This document shows, in pieces, positions 32,934-41,332 of a DNA stretch of 43,626 bases. Below the pieces are notes generated by a model. It saw only the letters and a list, made by a program, of their open reading frames with translations. It searched no databases and was not told the origin of the DNA. Numbering within the stretch: the first letter of the stretch is position 1; each line of letters begins with the position of its first letter. The stretch is from Planctomycetota bacterium. GTDB taxonomy: Bacteria > Planctomycetota > UBA1135 > UBA2386. The DNA is taken from contig JAYZDB010000201.1 in assembly GCA_036338025.1 (NCBI GenBank), forward strand, positions 1 through 43,626, in the 5' to 3' direction. The translations under genes were made by a program, and so were the position numbers.

Positions 32934-34874
32934 TCATCGACGTTCGGAACTCATACGGGTGAGCAGATTGGCGAATTCCTCCGGCGACAGACTGCCCAGG
33001 TCACCATCCTGGCGATGACGGACCGCCAACCCGCCGCTCTCGACCTCCTGGTCGCCCACGACACAAACGAAGGGCACCTTCTCGGTCCACAGGTGCTTGC
33101 GGATCTTCTGGCCGATCTTCTCGCTGTCGACATCCGCCTCGACCCGGAACCCGGACGAGCGGAGGTCATCGGCCAGCTGCGAAGCCCGGTCCGCATGGCG
33201 CTCACCGACCGATAGGACCACTGCCTGCAGCGGCGCCAGCCAGACCGGGAACGCGCCCCCGAAGTGCTCCACCAGGATGCCGAAGAAGCGCTCCAGTGAG
33301 CCGAGCAAGGCCCGGTGGATCATCACCGGCCGGGTCTTGCTACCGTCCCGGTCGATGTAGGACATGTCGAACCGCTCCGGCTGGGTAAAGTCCGCCTGCA
33401 CCGTCGAGCATTGCCAGAACCGGCCCAGGCTGTCCTTGATCTTGACGTCGATCTTCGGTCCGTAGAACGCACCGCCACCCTCGTCGATCTCATACCGCAG
33501 TTCGAGTCGTTCGAGCGCCTGCCGCAATGCCTCGGTCGCAGTGTCCCACTGCTCCTGCTCACCGACATACTTGTCGGGCCGGGTCGACAGCACCAGGTCG
33601 TATTCCTCGAACCCGAAGGCCTCGAGGATAAACAGGACGAAGCGGAGACAGCGCTCGATCTCCTCGTCGAGCTGATCAGGCCGCAAGAAAAGGTGGGCGT
33701 CATCCTGGGTGAAACCGCGTACCCGCATGAGGCCATGCAGGGTTCCGGCACTCTCGTATCGATAGACGGTGCCCAGCTCCGCCCAACGAAACGGCAGATC
33801 CCGGTACGACCGGCGCTTGCTGTTGAAGATCTCGATGTGGAACGGGCAGTTCATCGGCTTGAGGAGGTACTCAACCCCATCGATGTCGATCGGCGAGTAC
33901 ATCGACTCCTTGTAGAATTCCAGGTGACCACTGGTCTCCCACAGGTCGGAGCGCGCGACGTGCGGGCTGTAGACGATGTCGTAACCACCCGCCAAGTGTT
34001 CGTTGCGCCAGAACTCCTCGACCTTGTGGCGCACGAACCCGCCCTTCGGGTGCCACAGGACCAAGCCTGCACCGAGCTCCCCCATCGTCGAGAACAGATC
34101 GAGGTCCTTGCCCAGGCGTCGGTGGTCTCGCTTGGCAGCCTCCTCGAGATTCTTGCGGTGCTCGTCCATCTGCGCCCGGTCGGCAAAGGCGTGGCCGTAG
34201 ACCCGGGTCAGCATCTTGTTGTCCGCATCGTCGCCAAAGTACGCCCCGGCGATCGACAGGACCGCGATCCCATCGCCGATGTTGCCGGTACTCGGGACGT
34301 GCGGTCCCTTGCAGAGATCGACGAACTCCCCGCTGCGGAAGAAGCTGATCTCCGCGTCGTCGGGCAGCTTGTCGATGGTCGCGACCTTGTAGTCCTCACC
34401 GTTGTCGGCCATCAACTTGCGGGCATCCTCACGGCCCATGATCTCCTTCTCGAACGGGACGTTGGCCTTGATGATCTTCCGCATCTGCTTCTCGATTTCC
34501 GGCAGATCCGCCATCGTGATCGGCTGGTCGCCTAGATCGATGTCATAGTAGTAGCCGTAGCGCGGGTCTTCGACCGGCGGCCCCTTCCACAACTTGACCT
34601 CCGGCCGAAGCCGCGAGATTGCATCAGCCAGCACATGGGCCGCCGAGTGCCGCAGGACTTCGAGCCCCTCCTTGGAGTCACGCGTAATGATCGAAATCGC
34701 ACTGTTGCTGGAGATCGTCTCGCGCAGACTCTGGGTGCTGCCATCGACATCGATCGCCACGGCGGCCTTCAGCAAACCCTTGCCGATCGACTTGGCGATC
34801 TCGAGGCCGTTCACGCCCTCGGGGTATTCTCTCTTGCTGCCGTCGGGCAGGGTGATCTCGATCTGGTCGGACAT
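32934..34874 (-). CDS. thrS: threonine--tRNA ligase
   Basis: ATG at 34874 gives MSDQIEITLPDGS (TGS domain). Also has HSAAHVLA, class II motifs (FRWAELGTVYRYE, RGFTQDDAH, GGGAFYGPKID) and the anticodon-binding C-terminus. Confidence 0.95.
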   Translation of the reverse strand: MSDQIEITLPDGSKREYPEGVNGLEIAKSIGKGLLKAAVAIDVDGSTQSLRETISSNSAISIITRDSKEGLEVLRHSAAHVLADAISRLRPEVKLWKGPPVEDPRYGYYYDIDLGDQPITMADLPEIEKQMRKIIKANVPFEKEIMGREDARKLMADNGEDYKVATIDKLPDDAEISFFRSGEFVDLCKGPHVPSTGNIGDGIAVLSIAGAYFGDDADNKMLTRVYGHAFADRAQMDEHRKNLEEAAKRDHRRLGKDLDLFSTMGELGAGLVLWHPKGGFVRHKVEEFWRNEHLAGGYDIVYSPHVARSDLWETSGHLEFYKESMYSPIDIDGVEYLLKPMNCPFHIEIFNSKRRSYRDLPFRWAELGTVYRYESAGTLHGLMRVRGFTQDDAHLFLRPDQLDEEIERCLRFVLFILEAFGFEEYDLVLSTRPDKYVGEQEQWDTATEALRQALERLELRYEIDEGGGAFYGPKIDVKIKDSLGRFWQCSTVQADFTQPERFDMSYIDRDGSKTRPVMIHRALLGSLERFFGILVEHFGGAFPVWLAPLQAVVLSVGERHADRASQLADDLRSSGFRVEADVDSEKIGQKIRKHLWTEKVPFVCVVGDQEVESGGLAVRHRQDGDLGSLSPEEFANLLTRMSSERR

Positions 34875-34978
34875 CTGCTGCGGATTAGAACGGCGCTCCC
34901 TGAGCATGGCAAGGAAGGCTTGCCGGTGTTGGGCGCTTCAGCCTTGTTCCCCGCGCTCCTGAGCATCTAATTGCCAAC

Positions 34979-35131
34979 ATGAAGTCGATCTGCGCCGCCG
35001 CGACCCTCCCCGCCCTGTTGGCTGCCTGCAAATCCGCGGCGGGCATGGCCTGTGCGAGGGAGTTGATCCTGGAGGTCCGGGATCGTCTGCAGTGGATCAC
35101 CAGCAACGGCGTCGCAAAGATTCTCAAGTAG
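34979..35131 (+). CDS. candidate 50-aa small lipoprotein (not in the ORF track)
   Basis: ATG 34979 to TAG 35129-35131. The product is MKSICAAATLPALLAACKSAAGMACARELILEVRDRLQWITSNGVAKILK, with a lipobox LLAAC and mostly G/C third positions. It lies 71 nt upstream of the Fe-S/NrfD gene on the same strand. Confidence 0.35.
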   Translation: MKSICAAATLPALLAACKSAAGMACARELILEVRDRLQWITSNGVAKILK

Positions 35132-35202: not shown

Positions 35203-36723
35203 ATGCCCTACGGCTTCGTCATCGATCAGACCCGCTGCATCGGATGCCATGCCTGCACCGTCGCCTGCAAGGCCGAGAACGACGTACCACTCGGCGACTT
35301 CCGGACCTGGGTCAAATACACGGAGACCGGCACCTTCCCAGAAGTACGCAGGGATTTTTCCGTCCTGCGGTGCAATCACTGCACCAACGCGCCCTGCATC
35401 ACCATCTGCCCAGTCGTCGCGCTCGACAAACGCCCCGACGGGATCGTCGATCTCGACCGCAACGTCTGCATCGGCTGCAAGTCCTGCATGCAGGCCTGCC
35501 CCTACGACGCCCTCTACCTCAACGAGGAGACTGGCGGCGCCGAGAAGTGCCACTACTGCGCGCACCGGGTCGACCAGGGCCTGGAACCCGCCTGCGTGGT
35601 GGTGTGTCCCGAGGAAGCGATCATCAGCGGTGATTTCAGCGATCCGACCAGCAAGATCGCCATCGCGCGAAACCGACCCGACGCCATCGTGCGACGACCA
35701 GAGCAGGGCACTGGCCCGAACGTGCACTACCTGGGTGCCAATCCGGTCGCGCTCGATCCCGGGCGCGCCAAGGAACCCGACTCCTACCTGTGGAGTCAGC
35801 GTCGGTATGCAGCTCCCGACTATCCAGACGACATCGAGCTGGCACCCGACACCATCACCGTACTCGATGTCAACCACAAGCTGCACTGGGGCACCGAGGT
35901 CTCGCTCTATCTCCTGACCAAGGGCATCAGCTCTGGCGCCATCATGCTGGCGCCGCTGGTCGGCTTGTTTGCCGCCAACCCGGCCAACAATGCCAACGTC
36001 TGCAACTACCTGCCGGAGCTGCTCGGCCTCGCCTTCCTCTCGATCACCCTACTGCTGCTGGTGATGGACCTGGAACGGCCCGAGAAGTTCCTGTCCATCA
36101 TGCTGCGCCCCAACCCGAAGAGTTGGTTGGTCCGGGGTGCCTGGGTGCTGACCGGTTTTGGTGCGGTGATCGCAGCTACCATCCTGGCCCGACTCAGCGG
36201 GCACGACAACCTGGCCGAGACCCTGCGTTACGCCGGCATCCTGACCGGTGCCAGCGCCGCTGGCTACACCGCCTTCTTGTTCGGACAATGCGAAGGCCGT
36301 GACCTCTGGCAGAACACGCGGATCTTGCTACCCCACCTGCTGATCCAGGCGGTAATGCTCGGTGCCGTGACCATGCTGGCCTGGTTGCCCAGTGAAGCCT
36401 CGCTGGCCTGGCTGGTCACGATCGCTGCCATCGGCCACCTGCTGCTGGCGCTGCACGAGGCCCACAGTTCCCATCCCACGCCCACCGCCAGGCGGGCGGC
36501 CAGCCTGCTCCCTCGCATCCCGGCATTCGGCAGTGCGAAGTACAAGGCATTCAGCCTCGGTTTAGGGCTGACGACCATCACTGGCTTACTGGCGCCGACA
36601 CTGGCCGTCACCGGTCATCTCAACACCGTCACCGCCCTGGTCCTGCTGGCAAGTTGCTGGCTGGGCACCTTCCTCTACGAGCAGGCCTACCTACGCGCCG
36701 GCCAACTCCCGCCGCTGTCCTGA
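35203..36723 (+). CDS. fused 4Fe-4S ferredoxin-type (PsrB/NrfC/DmsB-like) and NrfD/PsrC-like membrane subunit
   Basis: 506 aa. The N-terminal ~200 aa carry four Cys clusters (CIGCHACTVACK, CNHCTNAPCITICP, CIGCKSCMQACP, CHYCAHR...CVVVCP) and no signal or Tat motif. The C-terminal ~270 aa contain about 8 hydrophobic helices. Confidence 0.88.
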   Translation: MPYGFVIDQTRCIGCHACTVACKAENDVPLGDFRTWVKYTETGTFPEVRRDFSVLRCNHCTNAPCITICPVVALDKRPDGIVDLDRNVCIGCKSCMQACPYDALYLNEETGGAEKCHYCAHRVDQGLEPACVVVCPEEAIISGDFSDPTSKIAIARNRPDAIVRRPEQGTGPNVHYLGANPVALDPGRAKEPDSYLWSQRRYAAPDYPDDIELAPDTITVLDVNHKLHWGTEVSLYLLTKGISSGAIMLAPLVGLFAANPANNANVCNYLPELLGLAFLSITLLLLVMDLERPEKFLSIMLRPNPKSWLVRGAWVLTGFGAVIAATILARLSGHDNLAETLRYAGILTGASAAGYTAFLFGQCEGRDLWQNTRILLPHLLIQAVMLGAVTMLAWLPSEASLAWLVTIAAIGHLLLALHEAHSSHPTPTARRAASLLPRIPAFGSAKYKAFSLGLGLTTITGLLAPTLAVTGHLNTVTALVLLASCWLGTFLYEQAYLRAGQLPPLS

Positions 36724-36728
36724 TCACC

Positions 36729-39503
36729 ATGACGACTTCCGACGAACTGCGCGTGACCCCTCTCGAGAAGTTCCCACCGCCCGAACAATGGGACCACTGG
36801 GAAGAACTCGACGGCCGGGCCTGGCCAGACCGGGAAAAGCGCGCGTATTCCCTGATCCCGACCACCTGCTTCAACTGCGAGGCAGCCTGCGGCCTGGTCG
36901 CCTACATCGACAAGGAAACCCGCGAGATCCGCAAACTGGAAGGCAACCCGTACCACCCGGGATCTCGTGGCCGCAACTGCGCCAAGGGCCCCGCCACGAT
37001 CAACCAGGTCCACGATCCGGAGCGGATCCTCTATCCGATGAAGCGGGTCGGGCCGCGCGGCAGCGGCAAGTTCGAACGCACCACCTGGGACGAGGCCCTC
37101 GATGCGAGCGGCGCACGGATCCGCAAGGCCGTGCAGGACAAGCGACTCACTGAAGTGATGTACCACGTCGGCCGCCCCGGCGCCGACGGCTACATGGACC
37201 GGGTGTTGCAGGCCTGGGGAGTCGACGGTCACAACTCACACACCAACGTGTGCTCCGGCGCAGCGCGGCTGGGCTACACCCTGTGGTCAGGCCACGATCG
37301 TCCCTCGCCAGATTATGAAAACGCCAAATTCATCCTGCTGATCAGCGCCCACCTCGAGACCGGCCACTACTTCAACCCACACGCCCAGAGGATCATCGAC
37401 GCCAAGACCAAGGGCTGCAAGATCGCCACCTGCGACATCCGCCTGTCGAACACGGCTTCGATGTCGGATTTCTGGCTGGCGCCGCGCCCGGGCACCGAGG
37501 CCCTGATGCTGCTCGGCTTCGCGCATGTGATCCTGGGAGAGGATCTCGCCAACCAGGACTTCCTGCGCAACTGGGTCAACTGGCGCACCTGGCTCGATGT
37601 CCGGGGCAAGGATGGCGGGTTCCCTGAGTTCATGGAGAGCTTGCGCAGCGAATACGCCTTCGCGACACCCGAACACGTCGCCGAGGTCACCGGCCTCACC
37701 GAAGCGCAGATCCGCACGATCGGCAAATTGATCGGCGACGCTGGCTCCAAGTTTGCCTCGCACGTCTGGCGCAACACGGCGAGCGGCAACAAGGGCGGCT
37801 GGCAGGTCGCACGCTGCCTGCAGTTCCTGGTAACCCTGGTCGGCGCCGTCAACACCGAGGGCGGCACCTCCTGCAACGGCTACAACAAGTTCGTCGCCAA
37901 ACCCTTCGATGTACCTTCGCCGCAAGAGGTCTGGAGCGAGCTGCTGTATCCGCGCGAGTGGCCCCTGTCGCACCACGAGTTGTCGTTCCTCCTGCCGCAC
38001 CTGCTCAAGGACGGCCGTGGCAAGATCGACACCTACTTCACCCGGGTCTACAACCCGGTCTGGACCAACCCCGACGGTTGCACCTGGATGGAAGTCTTGC
38101 AGGACGAGTCGATGGTCGGCTGCCACGTAGCGCTCACCCCGACCTGGAGTGAAACCGCGCGCCTGGCCGACTATGTCCTGCCGATGGGTATCGCCACCGA
38201 ACGCCACGACATCGCCAGCCAAGAGACCCACGCCGCCCAGTGGATCGCCTTCCGCCAACCGGTCATGCGCGAGATGCTGCGACGCGAAGGCAAGGAAGTC
38301 GAGTGGACATGGCAGGCCAATCCCGGCGAGGTCTGGGAGGAGGACGAATTCTGGATCGCGCTGAGTTGGCGCATCGATCCGAACGGTGAGCTCGGGATCC
38401 GCAAGCACTTCGAGTCGCCGTACCGTCCCGGCGAACGCGTGACCATCGAAGAATACTACAAGTGGATCTTCGAGAACTCGGTGCCCGGCCTGCCGGAGAC
38501 GGCCGCGGCCGCCGGGATGGAGCCGCTGGAATACATGCGGCGGCACAGCGCCTACCTGGTGAAAGACAAGATCTACAAGCCACAGGAGAACGAGTTGTCC
38601 GCCGAGGAGCTCATCGGCACCGAGCGCGATGAGGACCACGGCGAAATCCGCAAGGACGGCAAGCTGGTCGGCATCCTGGTCAACGGCAAGTCCATGCGCG
38701 GCTTTCCCACGCCTGGCAAGCGCCTGGAAATCCACTCACCGATGATGTCCGAGTGGGGTTGGCCCGAACACACCGAGCCCGGCTACATCCCGAGCCATAT
38801 CGACGAGAGCCAACTGGACCGCGACGCGTCGGAGTACGTACTGGTGTCGACCTTCCGGCTACCGACCCTGATCCATACGCGGTCCGCGAACTCCAAGTGG
38901 CTGAGCGAACTTTCCAACACCAACCCGGTGTGGATCCACACCTCCGATGCCAAACGACTCGGCGTGGTCAGCGGCGACCTGGTCAAGGTGCAGACCCGGA
39001 TCGGCTACTATGTCAACAAGGCCTGGGTCACCGAAGGGATCCGCCCCGGCGTCGTGGCCTGCAGCCACCACATGGGCCGCTGGCGCCTGGACGGCGACCA
39101 GCAGGGGGTCAACAGTTGGCAGTGCCATGGCATGAGCCTGCAGCGTGACGGCAGCACCTACCGATATCGACGCCAGAAGAACGTCGGGAGCTACCCCAGC
39201 GAGGACCGCGAGAGCGCCCACGTCTGGTGGAACGAAGGCGGCGTGCACCAGAACTTCATCTTCCCGGTCCAACCCGATCCGGTGTCCGGCATGCACTGCT
39301 GGCACCAGAAAGTCACCGTCACCAAGGCCGGCCCCGACGACCAGTACGGTGACATCGTCGTGGACACTGCCAAGTCGATGGAAGTGTTCCACGAATGGCA
39401 GGCCGAGACCCGCCCCGCACCAGGTCCAGGAGGACTGCGCAGACCGCTGCACCTCAAGCGGGTCGTCCGCCCAATCGACGAGGCCTACAAACTCGACGAC
39501 TAG
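36729..39503 (+). CDS. molybdopterin (bis-MGD) oxidoreductase catalytic subunit, Psr/Phs/Soe-like, no Tat signal
   Basis: ATG at 36729 is 6 nt after the upstream stop. The N-terminus MTTSDELRVTPLEKFPPPEQW has no twin-arginine motif. The FS0 cluster is CFNCEAACGL...NCAKG. A candidate Mo-ligand Cys lies in HTNVCSGAARLG. Length is 924 aa. Confidence 0.88.
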   Translation: MTTSDELRVTPLEKFPPPEQWDHWEELDGRAWPDREKRAYSLIPTTCFNCEAACGLVAYIDKETREIRKLEGNPYHPGSRGRNCAKGPATINQVHDPERILYPMKRVGPRGSGKFERTTWDEALDASGARIRKAVQDKRLTEVMYHVGRPGADGYMDRVLQAWGVDGHNSHTNVCSGAARLGYTLWSGHDRPSPDYENAKFILLISAHLETGHYFNPHAQRIIDAKTKGCKIATCDIRLSNTASMSDFWLAPRPGTEALMLLGFAHVILGEDLANQDFLRNWVNWRTWLDVRGKDGGFPEFMESLRSEYAFATPEHVAEVTGLTEAQIRTIGKLIGDAGSKFASHVWRNTASGNKGGWQVARCLQFLVTLVGAVNTEGGTSCNGYNKFVAKPFDVPSPQEVWSELLYPREWPLSHHELSFLLPHLLKDGRGKIDTYFTRVYNPVWTNPDGCTWMEVLQDESMVGCHVALTPTWSETARLADYVLPMGIATERHDIASQETHAAQWIAFRQPVMREMLRREGKEVEWTWQANPGEVWEEDEFWIALSWRIDPNGELGIRKHFESPYRPGERVTIEEYYKWIFENSVPGLPETAAAAGMEPLEYMRRHSAYLVKDKIYKPQENELSAEELIGTERDEDHGEIRKDGKLVGILVNGKSMRGFPTPGKRLEIHSPMMSEWGWPEHTEPGYIPSHIDESQLDRDASEYVLVSTFRLPTLIHTRSANSKWLSELSNTNPVWIHTSDAKRLGVVSGDLVKVQTRIGYYVNKAWVTEGIRPGVVACSHHMGRWRLDGDQQGVNSWQCHGMSLQRDGSTYRYRRQKNVGSYPSEDRESAHVWWNEGGVHQNFIFPVQPDPVSGMHCWHQKVTVTKAGPDDQYGDIVVDTAKSMEVFHEWQAETRPAPGPGGLRRPLHLKRVVRPIDEAYKLDD

Positions 39504-41284
39504 TCGTCGGTGACGGCCGGCACATTCGACAAGATGTGCAGGTCCGCCAACTGCTCCGCCGCCACCGGCGAAGGTGCCTCGCACATCAGGTCGGTGGCTC
39601 TGGCGGTCTTTGGGAAGGCAATCACATCACGGATGCTCTCGCAGCCGAGCGCCAAGGTCACGATCCGGTCGACACCCAGGGCGATGCCGCCATGCGGGGG
39701 TGCCCCGTAGCGGAACGCATCGAGGAGGAAGCCGAACTTCCGCTGCTGTTCCTCCTCACCAACGCCGAGGAATTCGAAGACCCTCTTTTGCACATCCTGG
39801 CGATGGATCCGGATGCTGCCGGAACCGAGTTCCCATCCATTCATGACCAGGTCGTAGGCGCGTGACTCGATCTTGGCGGTATCGACTCCAAAGTCCGCGA
39901 TGTCCCAATCCACCGGGGCGGTGAACGGGTGGTGTGAACTATCCCATCGACCAGTTTCCTCGTTCTCGACGAACAGCGGGAAATTGGTGACCCAGCACAA
40001 CTCGAAGGTCTTGGGATCTCGCATCCCCAGGTCATCACCGAGCTTGACGCGCAATTCCCCCAGGGCCCGGTAGGCAACGCTCGCCCGGTCAGCGACGAAC
40101 AGCAGGAGGTCCCCGACCTCAGCCGACATCGCGGCGATGAGTTGGCTGCCCTTGTCGCCCTCGAAGAACTTGCCGATCGATCCGGTGACACCCTCGTCAG
40201 TGATCTTGGCCCAGGCCAGGCCGCGGGCGCCGTATTCGGCGACGTACTGGGTCAGGGCATCGATCTTCTTGCGGGAGTAGTTTGCGGCCTCACCCTTCAC
40301 GCACAGGCCCTGCACCATGCCACCATTCTCGATCGCCCCGGCGAACACCTTGAAGTCGCTGCCACCGGCCAACTCCGAGATGTCGATCAACTCCAATTCG
40401 AACCGGGTGTCCGGCTTATCGACCCCATAGCGCCGCATTGCCTCGGCGTATGTCATCCGCGGAAACGGTGTCTTTACCTCAATCTCGAAGCCGGCCTGCA
40501 TCGCATCGACCATCATGCCCTCGACCAATTCGAGCACCTGGTTCTCCTCGACGAACGACATCTCGATATCGACCTGCGTAAACTCCGGCTGCCGGTCGGC
40601 GCGCAGGTCCTCATCCCGGAAGCAACGCGCGATCTGGTAGTAGCGGTCCATGCCCGCCACCATCAACAACTGCTTGAAGATCTGCGGACTCTGCGGCAAG
40701 GCATAGAATTCACCTGGATTGATCCGACTCGGTACCAGGTAGTCACGCGCACCCTCGGGTGTGCTCTTGGTCAGGATCGGAGTCTCGACATCCAAGAAAT
40801 CCCGTTCCGCGAGGTAGTTCCGGACCGCCGACACAAACCGGGACCGTTGCTCCATCGCGCGGGCCATTGGACGACGGCGGAGGTCCAGATACCGATACCG
40901 CATCCGCAACTCTTCGTTGGCCTCGACCTTGTCCAGGACTTCGAAGGGTGGCGTGTCGGCTGCGCCGAGCACCTCGACAGCTTTCGCGTAGATCTCGATC
41001 GCACCGGTAACCCGGCTCGGGTTGATGTTGGATTCGCCGCGCAACCCGACCTTGCCGGCGATCATGACCACATTCTCGGCCCGCAGGCCCCGCGCGCGCT
41101 CGTAGAGCTCGGCATCGTCCTGATCGAAGACCACCTGGGTGACTCCGAATCGGTCGCGGACATCGAGAAACAAGATCTGGCCGTGATCACGATAATTCTC
41201 GACCCAGCCGTTCAAGATGATGTCCTGGCCCTCGTGACCCTTGCTCAGTTCGCCGCAGGTGTGGGTACGTTGCCAGTTTGTCAT
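39500..41284 (-). CDS. aspS: aspartate--tRNA ligase
   Basis: ATG at 41284 gives MTNWQRTHTCGEL. Also has FLDVRDRFG, class II motifs (FRDEDLRADRQPEFTQVD, GGSIRIH, PPHGGIALGVDR) and the GAD insertion. Confidence 0.95.
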   Translation of the reverse strand: MTNWQRTHTCGELSKGHEGQDIILNGWVENYRDHGQILFLDVRDRFGVTQVVFDQDDAELYERARGLRAENVVMIAGKVGLRGESNINPSRVTGAIEIYAKAVEVLGAADTPPFEVLDKVEANEELRMRYRYLDLRRRPMARAMEQRSRFVSAVRNYLAERDFLDVETPILTKSTPEGARDYLVPSRINPGEFYALPQSPQIFKQLLMVAGMDRYYQIARCFRDEDLRADRQPEFTQVDIEMSFVEENQVLELVEGMMVDAMQAGFEIEVKTPFPRMTYAEAMRRYGVDKPDTRFELELIDISELAGGSDFKVFAGAIENGGMVQGLCVKGEAANYSRKKIDALTQYVAEYGARGLAWAKITDEGVTGSIGKFFEGDKGSQLIAAMSAEVGDLLLFVADRASVAYRALGELRVKLGDDLGMRDPKTFELCWVTNFPLFVENEETGRWDSSHHPFTAPVDWDIADFGVDTAKIESRAYDLVMNGWELGSGSIRIHRQDVQKRVFEFLGVGEEEQQRKFGFLLDAFRYGAPPHGGIALGVDRIVTLALGCESIRDVIAFPKTARATDLMCEAPSPVAAEQLADLHILSNVPAVTDD

Positions 41285-41332
41285 GATCTTCTCGCGGTCG
41301 GGCTGCAAGTCGGAATCGTCGCAACCAAGGAC

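Follow-up and report, generated by a model that had tools for sequence, protein, structure and literature searches.

A fused, cytoplasm-facing molybdoenzyme of the PSRLC3 type in a planctomycete genome, with sulfite as its probable substrate

The stretch of DNA analysed here, called the window, is a whole contig of 43,626 nucleotides (JAYZDB010000201.1, our contig C201) from a 3.6-Mb, 81%-complete metagenome-assembled genome (MAG) of a Planctomycetota bacterium (GCA_036338025.1). The stretch was found again in seawater and marine metagenomes from 11 studies. This report concerns two co-directional genes on its forward strand, BC (35203..36723) and A (36729..39503), and the membrane-bound molybdoenzyme that they encode. 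BC is a PsrBC- or SoeBC-like fused iron-sulfur (Fe-S)/membrane-anchor subunit of 506 amino acids (aa), and A is a catalytic subunit of 924 aa that binds Mo-bis(pyranopterin guanine dinucleotide) (Mo-bisPGD). The pair lies between thrS (32934-34907) and aspS (39500-41308), both on the reverse strand; this synteny was seen again in relatives, and no sulfur genes are close by in the window or in the relatives. An original prediction, made from the DNA letters, had placed BC 6 nt before A. The order is as predicted, but the spacer between the BC stop and the A start is 5 nt long (TCACC, 36724..36728), since the ATG of A, whose product begins MTTSDELRV, is at 36729 and not at 36730.

BC was assigned from its open reading frame (ORF), Pfam, PDB matches, a structure model and its homologues. 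The N-terminus of the protein, MPYGFVIDQTRCIGCHAC, opens a four-cluster [4Fe-4S] ferredoxin domain without a signal peptide (residues 1-190, 35203..35772). Pfam detects Fer4_11 (9e-24), and the nearest PDB match of the Fe-S part is PsrB of Thermus (6e-47). Sixteen cysteines make up four ferredoxin motifs within residues 12-135 (Cys 12, 15, 18, 22, 57, 60, 65, 69, 89, 92, 95, 99, 116, 119, 131 and 135), and the first cluster motif falls inside the first 25 residues in 110 of 120 BC homologues. A basic linker (residues 191-228, 35773..35886), which has a mean of 6.1 lysine plus arginine residues (K+R) in the 120 homologues and which is mainly non-helical and of low confidence in the AlphaFold model, connects this domain to the first transmembrane (TM) helix. 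The remainder (residues 229-506, 35887..36720) is an NrfD/PsrC-type quinone-binding anchor of eight helices (229-255, 270-291, 313-331, 343-362, 374-395, 401-420, 449-469 and 475-497), whose Fe-S-facing loops are assigned to the cytoplasm from the TM helices, the K+R counts and the model. The Pfam family NrfD (PF03916, 3e-17) spans TM1-5, and the AlphaFold model also has eight TM helices, with predicted local distance difference test (pLDDT) values of 85-98 in the membrane part; the two together identify in BC the eight-helix core of the NrfD/PsrC family, which consists of two four-helix bundles. A Foldseek search with the model retrieved 2vpw_B (PsrB, E 1e-8) and 2vpw_C (PsrC, E 1e-4, TM-score 0.73 over 279 columns). 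The original prediction of a signal-less four-cluster ferredoxin fused to an NrfD-like anchor of about eight helices was thus borne out by Pfam, the 16 cysteines and the model.

The catalytic subunit was assigned by Pfam, PDB matches and a tree. Pfam finds Molybdop_Fe4S4 (PF04879), Molybdopterin and Molydop_binding in A, and the best PDB matches are Thermus PsrA (1e-33) and then ArrA (6e-29). The FS0 [4Fe-4S] motif, CxxCxxxC...C, occupies residues 47-84 (36867..36980), as seen in the sequence and in the PF04879 match. The predicted Mo ligand is Cys175 (37251..37253) in HTNVCSGAARLG, which aligns with the cysteine of LCTAP in PsrA, of VCAEA in ArrA and of LCMAS in NapA; these are the established Mo-ligand positions (Cys173 in PsrA, Cys140 in NapA). 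None of the curated NCBIfam models came close to its cut-off on BC or A (bits/cut-off: PhsA 166/694, TtrA 92/1750, TtrB 184/416, NasC 72/1100, NapA 47/904, NarG 32/1084), and no SoeA model was among the NCBIfam matches of the two proteins.

We searched 5.8 billion proteins with each subunit. With BC, 120 clusters were retrieved, whose fused proteins are about 500 aa long (57-83% identity), and with A likewise 120 clusters (64-89% identity); the named clusters in both searches are all planctomycete MAGs. Furthermore, a scan of one genome per species revealed 80 A loci (56-70% identity), and a single fused BC ORF of 490-581 aa lies upstream of A in 61 of the 62 loci for which upstream sequence exists. 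At the DNA level, an independent metagenome contig covers the Fe-S/NrfD junction (35483-36374) without indels, and two further contigs, from two DNA runs, bridge the spacer between BC and A, also without indels. Fused proteins across clusters and phyla, together with these indel-free contigs, show that the fusion is neither a frameshift nor an assembly artefact, which the original prediction had named as a possible source of error. Three short contigs in one marine metatranscriptome derive from the two genes, BC and A, with 0-1 mismatch; this is a hint of expression of both genes, not proof. A promoter and terminator scan of the BC-A operon gave chance-level results only. G157 is a complete genome from the family to which the MAG belongs, and in its locus L036 (8075-16780) about 4.4 kb separate BC from A, and this insert consists of an esterase-family gene and ORFs without a Pfam match. 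Since BC and A are parted there, co-transcription of the two genes is not obligatory.

Upstream of BC, a 50-codon ORF with a lipobox-like start (34979-35131, forward strand) was considered as a further component of the system and rejected, as it has no tblastn match in more than 30 related loci or in the rest of the genome. In relatives this position is empty or taken by an M1 peptidase gene, and the ORF is probably not a conserved gene.

Neither subunit has an export signal. In the BC frame no start codon stands between the preceding stop and 35203, and the frame is open for only 8 codons further upstream; for A, the sole in-frame upstream start is a TTG at 36654, which lies inside the conserved 3' end of BC. 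A Tat (twin-arginine translocation) signal at an alternative upstream start, which would have undermined the original prediction, was therefore not found for either gene. About 45 residues precede the FS0 cysteines in 120 A homologues, and they form a conserved acidic stretch, TPLENFPPPExWDDW..., without a hydrophobic region, in agreement with the earlier statement that A starts without a twin-arginine motif. A 'WPRRV' seen occasionally in A homologues is not a Tat signal, because the cluster domain follows it directly. The loops on the Fe-S side of BC carry a mean of 11.0 K+R, and those on the opposite side carry 2.5; the Fe-S side is the richer one in 120/120 BC homologues. By the positive-inside rule, these counts place the Fe-S domain, and hence the active site of A, in the cytoplasm. 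The anchor of BC is thus predicted to be inverted relative to PsrC, and an inverted anchor has also been proposed for SoeC (PMC8076601). The cytoplasmic, quinone-linked active site that the original prediction derived from this architecture therefore stands, and we regard BC-A, with very high confidence, as a cytoplasm-facing, quinone-linked enzyme of the PSRLC3 type.

BC-A is distributed widely. The 80 A loci come from Planctomycetota, Acidobacteriota, Chloroflexota, Thermomicrobiota, Bacteroidota, Chlorobiota, Calditrichota, Methylomirabilota, Binatota, Armatimonadota, Spirochaetota and Myxococcota. The full-length fusion is present in about 85 of 301 sampled Planctomycetota genomes, and in one planctomycete class A was found in 148 of 201 sampled genomes. 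A tblastn search against plasmids gave A sequences of Thermomicrobium roseum (57% identity), Rhodococcus jostii RHA1 (54%) and haloarchaea (about 51%). In the annotated cases that were checked, T. roseum, RHA1 and Natrinema halophilum, an Fe-S/NrfD fusion of 506-607 aa lies directly upstream of A, and the order BC then A is common to Chlorobium, Thermomicrobium, Rhodococcus and Natrinema. In a maximum-likelihood tree, every A that is accompanied by a fused BC falls in one clade (Shimodaira-Hasegawa-like approximate likelihood ratio test (SH-aLRT) 100, stem 1.1). The A of the window is within a planctomycete subclade, and two Pirellulaceae sequences group with the Bacteroidota/Chlorobiota set, which indicates that lateral transfer has occurred. 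P0276, the sole basal form whose neighbourhood was inspected, has unfused B-C-A genes, and a sister clade with 33-37% identity to A likewise has the order B-C-A. E. coli PhsA is 23% identical to A and far outside the clade.

Several related loci were observed in the course of these searches. On plasmid pAZKH of Azoarcus sp. KH32C, a sister-clade locus (L045, 1-13609; 33-36% identity) combines B-C-A genes that are not fused with a TorD-like gene and additional Fe-S proteins. An ACR3 arsenite pump is encoded next to it, as are a PhnD-like binding protein, a histidine kinase and a regulator of the sigma-54 type, which together are reminiscent of AioXSR; the locus may encode an arsenic-linked molybdoenzyme that is as yet uncharacterised. 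Sulfurovum mangrovi has a similar cluster on a plasmid (L046). Planctomycetes also have a second pair, composed of unfused Fe-S (B) and MopB (A) genes about 28% identical to A (L040, 11941-15365, in G157; L137, 4611-8035, in G301). This pair (cluster P0347, locus L158) forms a tight separate clade in the tree, and in one metagenome relative a TorD/NarJ-like chaperone gene follows it. Plasmid matches from Thioclava, Agrobacterium and Ralstonia were tried as SoeA and rejected, as they are other MopB types. A MAG labelled Luminiphilus sp. (Gammaproteobacteria; L049, G301) has an A gene 70% identical to that of the window; the genome collection places this MAG in a planctomycete class, and probably the label or the binning is wrong.

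The architecture of BC-A is not new. Wright et al. 2013 described a psrBC fusion, the order psrBCA and the lack of Tat signals on a Marine Group A fosmid, and also in Marine Group II, Haladaptatus and Caldilinea (PMC3906813). According to that paper, the same layout occurs in several green sulfur bacteria (Frigaard and Bryant 2008), and their cytoplasmic complex was proposed to oxidise Dsr-derived sulfite (Gregersen et al. 2011). The complex named PSRLC3 has been described as having '2 genes' (PMC5473276), as 'inferred to be sulfite oxidase' (PMC9324843) and as an 'alternative sulfite-oxidizing system' (PMC6338057). We took the Chlorobium copies to be PSRLC3 from their two-gene fused layout beside dsr genes and from this literature description. 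BC-A shares with PSRLC3 the two-gene layout, in which a fused PsrBC-like gene stands directly before a PsrA-like gene, and the absence of Tat or Sec signals. In addition, the A of the window is 57% identical to that of Chlorobium sp. N1 within their common SH-aLRT-100 clade, and the fused BC, of 506 aa in the window, has 517-521 aa in Chlorobium. They differ in setting, because the Chlorobium pair adjoins TauE, dsrE2-rhd-tusA and dsrAB whereas the pair in the window stands between thrS and aspS, and planctomycete members have not been discussed under the PSRLC3 name. The original prediction that this locus departs from known systems is therefore not upheld, since the signal-less psrBC-A layout had already been published for PSRLC3 and others. 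As for placement, A does fall in a known clade of the same architecture, although this clade is biochemically uncharacterised.

Besides PSRLC3, the sulfite:quinone oxidoreductase SoeABC is among the closest known systems. According to studies cited in PMC8076601, its activity has been demonstrated genetically in Allochromatium vinosum and biochemically in Aquifex aeolicus. In SoeABC, a Mo-bisPGD enzyme bound to the membrane, a subunit with four Fe-S clusters is combined with an anchor of the NrfD type; it is predicted that this anchor is inverted and that the enzyme faces the cytoplasm (PMC8076601). The ligand in SoeABC is a Cys (PMC10100899). BC-A has the same cytoplasm-facing catalytic and Fe-S parts and inverted anchor, but it is encoded by two genes, BC then A, with B and C covalently fused, instead of three separate genes in the order soeA-soeB-soeC. 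The likeness to SoeABC, with a different gene order and a B-C fusion, had been noted in the original prediction and is apt. According to a review (PMC8232776) that paraphrases Dahl et al. 2013, SoeABC genes are universal in purple and green sulfur bacteria; we infer that the 'SoeABC' of green sulfur bacteria there is PSRLC3. A KEGG-based review of NrfD proteins lists SoeC in Proteobacteria, Clostridia and Aquificae only, without Planctomycetes and without mention of fusions (PMC8076601), so that the fused family is overlooked in KEGG-based surveys. The best solved relative is PsrABC of T. thermophilus (PDB 2VPW), by A (1e-33), B (6e-47) and the fold of C (TM-score 0.73). PsrABC and PhsABC/TtrBCA share the Cys ligand and the FS0 cluster with BC-A, but they are Tat-exported and periplasm-facing, with B and C separate, and A of the window has about 160 residues more than these enzymes. 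Neither a Tat signal on A nor a score above a Psr/Phs/Ttr family cut-off was found.

The neighbours of BC-A in other phyla point to sulfur metabolism. In Chlorobium sp. N1 the order is BC-A, a TauE/SafE permease, DsrE2, rhodanese, TusA, a DsrN-like protein, DsrA, DsrB and a DsrL-like protein. The run TauE-DsrE2-rhodanese-TusA is also present in two other Chlorobiaceae loci, and DsrAB was matched in one of them. Of the 80 loci, 22 (19 from Bacteroidota and 3 from Ktedonobacterales) have a homologue of persulfide dioxygenase (PDO)-rhodanese (E 1e-75 to 1e-100) at a distance of up to 10 kb, in several different arrangements. On pRHL3 of Rhodococcus RHA1, DsrE-TusA-BC-A-Mrp stands amid three metallo-beta-lactamase (MBL)-fold, PDO-like genes, two ArsR-type regulators, DUF202 genes and a thioredoxin gene, and in T. 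roseum a CsoR-family regulator is directly 5' of the pair. rDsr and PDO both release sulfite in the cytoplasm. Since these recurrent neighbours share this product, sulfite is the probable substrate of BC-A; where the original prediction had left the substrate open, gene context in four other phyla narrows it to this candidate. The genome of the window has a PDO homologue of its own on contig C265 (113 aa at 63% identity, truncated where the contig stops), and a SUOX-type domain, AprA and Xsc were not found in this 81%-complete MAG. As a separate observation, in RHA1 (L043, 11799-12968) and Natrinema (L044, 11924-13084) the next gene after A, which it overlaps, encodes an Mrp/NBP35-type Fe-S carrier ATPase, and it may be a dedicated maturation factor; its homologue in the genome of the window is elsewhere, on contig C74. 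Another MopB gene of the same genome (G000, C182:1149-2417, reverse strand), with an open frame of 957 aa interrupted by one in-frame TGA, is probably a selenocysteine formate dehydrogenase.

Several points weigh against sulfite oxidation by BC-A. A PDO homologue is near the pair in 0 of 14 Planctomycetota loci, and the pair is not clustered there with sulfur genes. The nearest solved relatives, PsrA and ArrA, are reductases. Sulfite is a putative substrate, deduced from the neighbouring genes and from the analogy with SoeABC. Moreover, the A. aeolicus enzyme reportedly reduces tetrathionate and sulfur in vitro, so that neither direction nor substrate may be unique. With these points taken into account, we still consider sulfite oxidation to be probably the physiological reaction of BC-A, at a moderate level of confidence. 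If BC-A were instead a cytoplasm-facing reductase of polysulfide, persulfide, thiosulfate or tetrathionate, menaquinol electrons would enter it and sulfide or thiosulfate would be released inside the cell. The best solved or curated matches fit such an enzyme (PsrA 1e-33, ArrA, PhsA 1e-48, and TtrB for the Fe-S domain), polysulfide reductase is the annotation that Wright et al. gave to the identical layout (PMC3906813), and the neighbouring DsrE, TusA and rhodanese carry sulfane sulfur. It is also general knowledge that B-C-A is the order of ttrBCA. However, no reductase model comes near its cut-off, PhsA is just 23% identical to A and distant in the tree, quinol-driven reduction would have no obvious benefit inside an aerobic heterotroph, and what the PDO and rDsr neighbours have in common is sulfite, not polysulfide. 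We consider a reductase rather unlikely. Conceivably, if the sulfur context were not transferable to planctomycetes, BC-A would act on something else in the cytoplasm, for example an S- or N-oxide, an oxyanion of arsenic or selenium, or an organic molecule. This would suit the housekeeping location without sulfur genes close by, and the presence of the sister clade (33-37% identity) beside ars and aioXSR-like genes in Azoarcus implies that the wider group has diversified in substrate. On the other hand, the identity of 56-70% between phyla and the grouping in a single tight clade favour one function that has been conserved, and the 81%-complete MAG, which has a PDO, yielded no sulfite oxidiser apart from the candidate BC-A, so that we consider a different substrate distinctly improbable.

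A membrane-bound nitrate reductase is a far weaker candidate and in our view very improbable. It was brought up by Lacipirellula parvula, in which an operon described as 'NapA plus Fe-S subunit fused to NrfD-like subunit' lies near narK and NAD(P)H nitrite reductase genes (PMC6995999), and by the database entry of one homologue, which is named 'Nitrate reductase'. The scores of NapA, NasC, NasA and NarG are far under those of the Psr, Phs and Dms models and under their own cut-offs, and the same enzyme adjoins dsr and PDO genes in other phyla. Among the annotated neighbourhoods inspected, in which no search was aimed at narK or nirBD, neither a nitrate transporter gene nor a nitrite reductase gene was seen. 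The membership of the Lacipirellula operon in the BC-A family could not be confirmed, and this lead was dropped; the second Fe-S and MopB locus of G157 is an unfused B-A pair, 28% identical to A. Least credible of all is a periplasmic orientation, reached by hitch-hiking export or by an unrecognised signal. Most NrfD-anchored complex iron-sulfur molybdoenzymes do face the periplasm (PMC8076601), but BC and A lack a signal as well as upstream space for one, the eight TM helices come after the Fe-S domain in BC, the positive-inside counts agree in 120/120 homologues, and no third gene is conserved beside the pair.

We therefore return to the cytoplasmic sulfite oxidase. The best explanation of the data is that BC-A is a two-subunit complex iron-sulfur molybdoenzyme of the PSRLC3 type, a putative relative of SoeABC that is fused and cytoplasm-facing and would work as SoeABC does. 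Its structural parts are strongly supported: A carries Mo-bisPGD, with Cys175 as ligand, and the FS0 cluster and remains in the cytoplasm, where it docks on the four-cluster ferredoxin domain of BC, which is covalently tied to the eight-helix NrfD/PsrC anchor with its Fe-S-facing side in the cytoplasm. At the Mo centre of A, cytoplasmic sulfite would be oxidised to sulfate. The sulfite would here probably be supplied by the C265 persulfide dioxygenase and perhaps by organosulfur breakdown. Sulfite would thereby be detoxified and the respiratory chain would be fed. It might further be imagined that the planctomycete BC-A, detached from sulfur-oxidation clusters and parked among translation genes (thrS, infC, aspS), is a constitutive, possibly proton-translocating sulfite:menaquinone oxidoreductase, but we hold this extension to be speculative and unlikely.

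In summary, BC-A represents, as an intact and unremarkable planctomycete copy, a family that is very widespread and already described, and the result for the window is a better annotation rather than a new kind of system. Standard pipelines label the family merely as 'molybdopterin-dependent oxidoreductase' or '4Fe-4S dicluster protein', while it spans over ten other phyla and two archaeal groups. If its members are cytoplasmic sulfite oxidases, the share of heterotrophs in sulfite oxidation is underestimated wherever inventories count SoeABC, SorAB, SUOX and Apr/Sat only. Surveys of sediment and seawater have found planctomycete PDO strongly induced and SoeABC, SorAB and SUOX scarce (PMC12345210). 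If the enzyme were indeed a constitutive sulfite:menaquinone oxidoreductase, it would fill the 'missing sulfite oxidase' of these surveys, and marine heterotrophs would conserve energy from the sulfite of sulfide detoxification or organosulfur breakdown.

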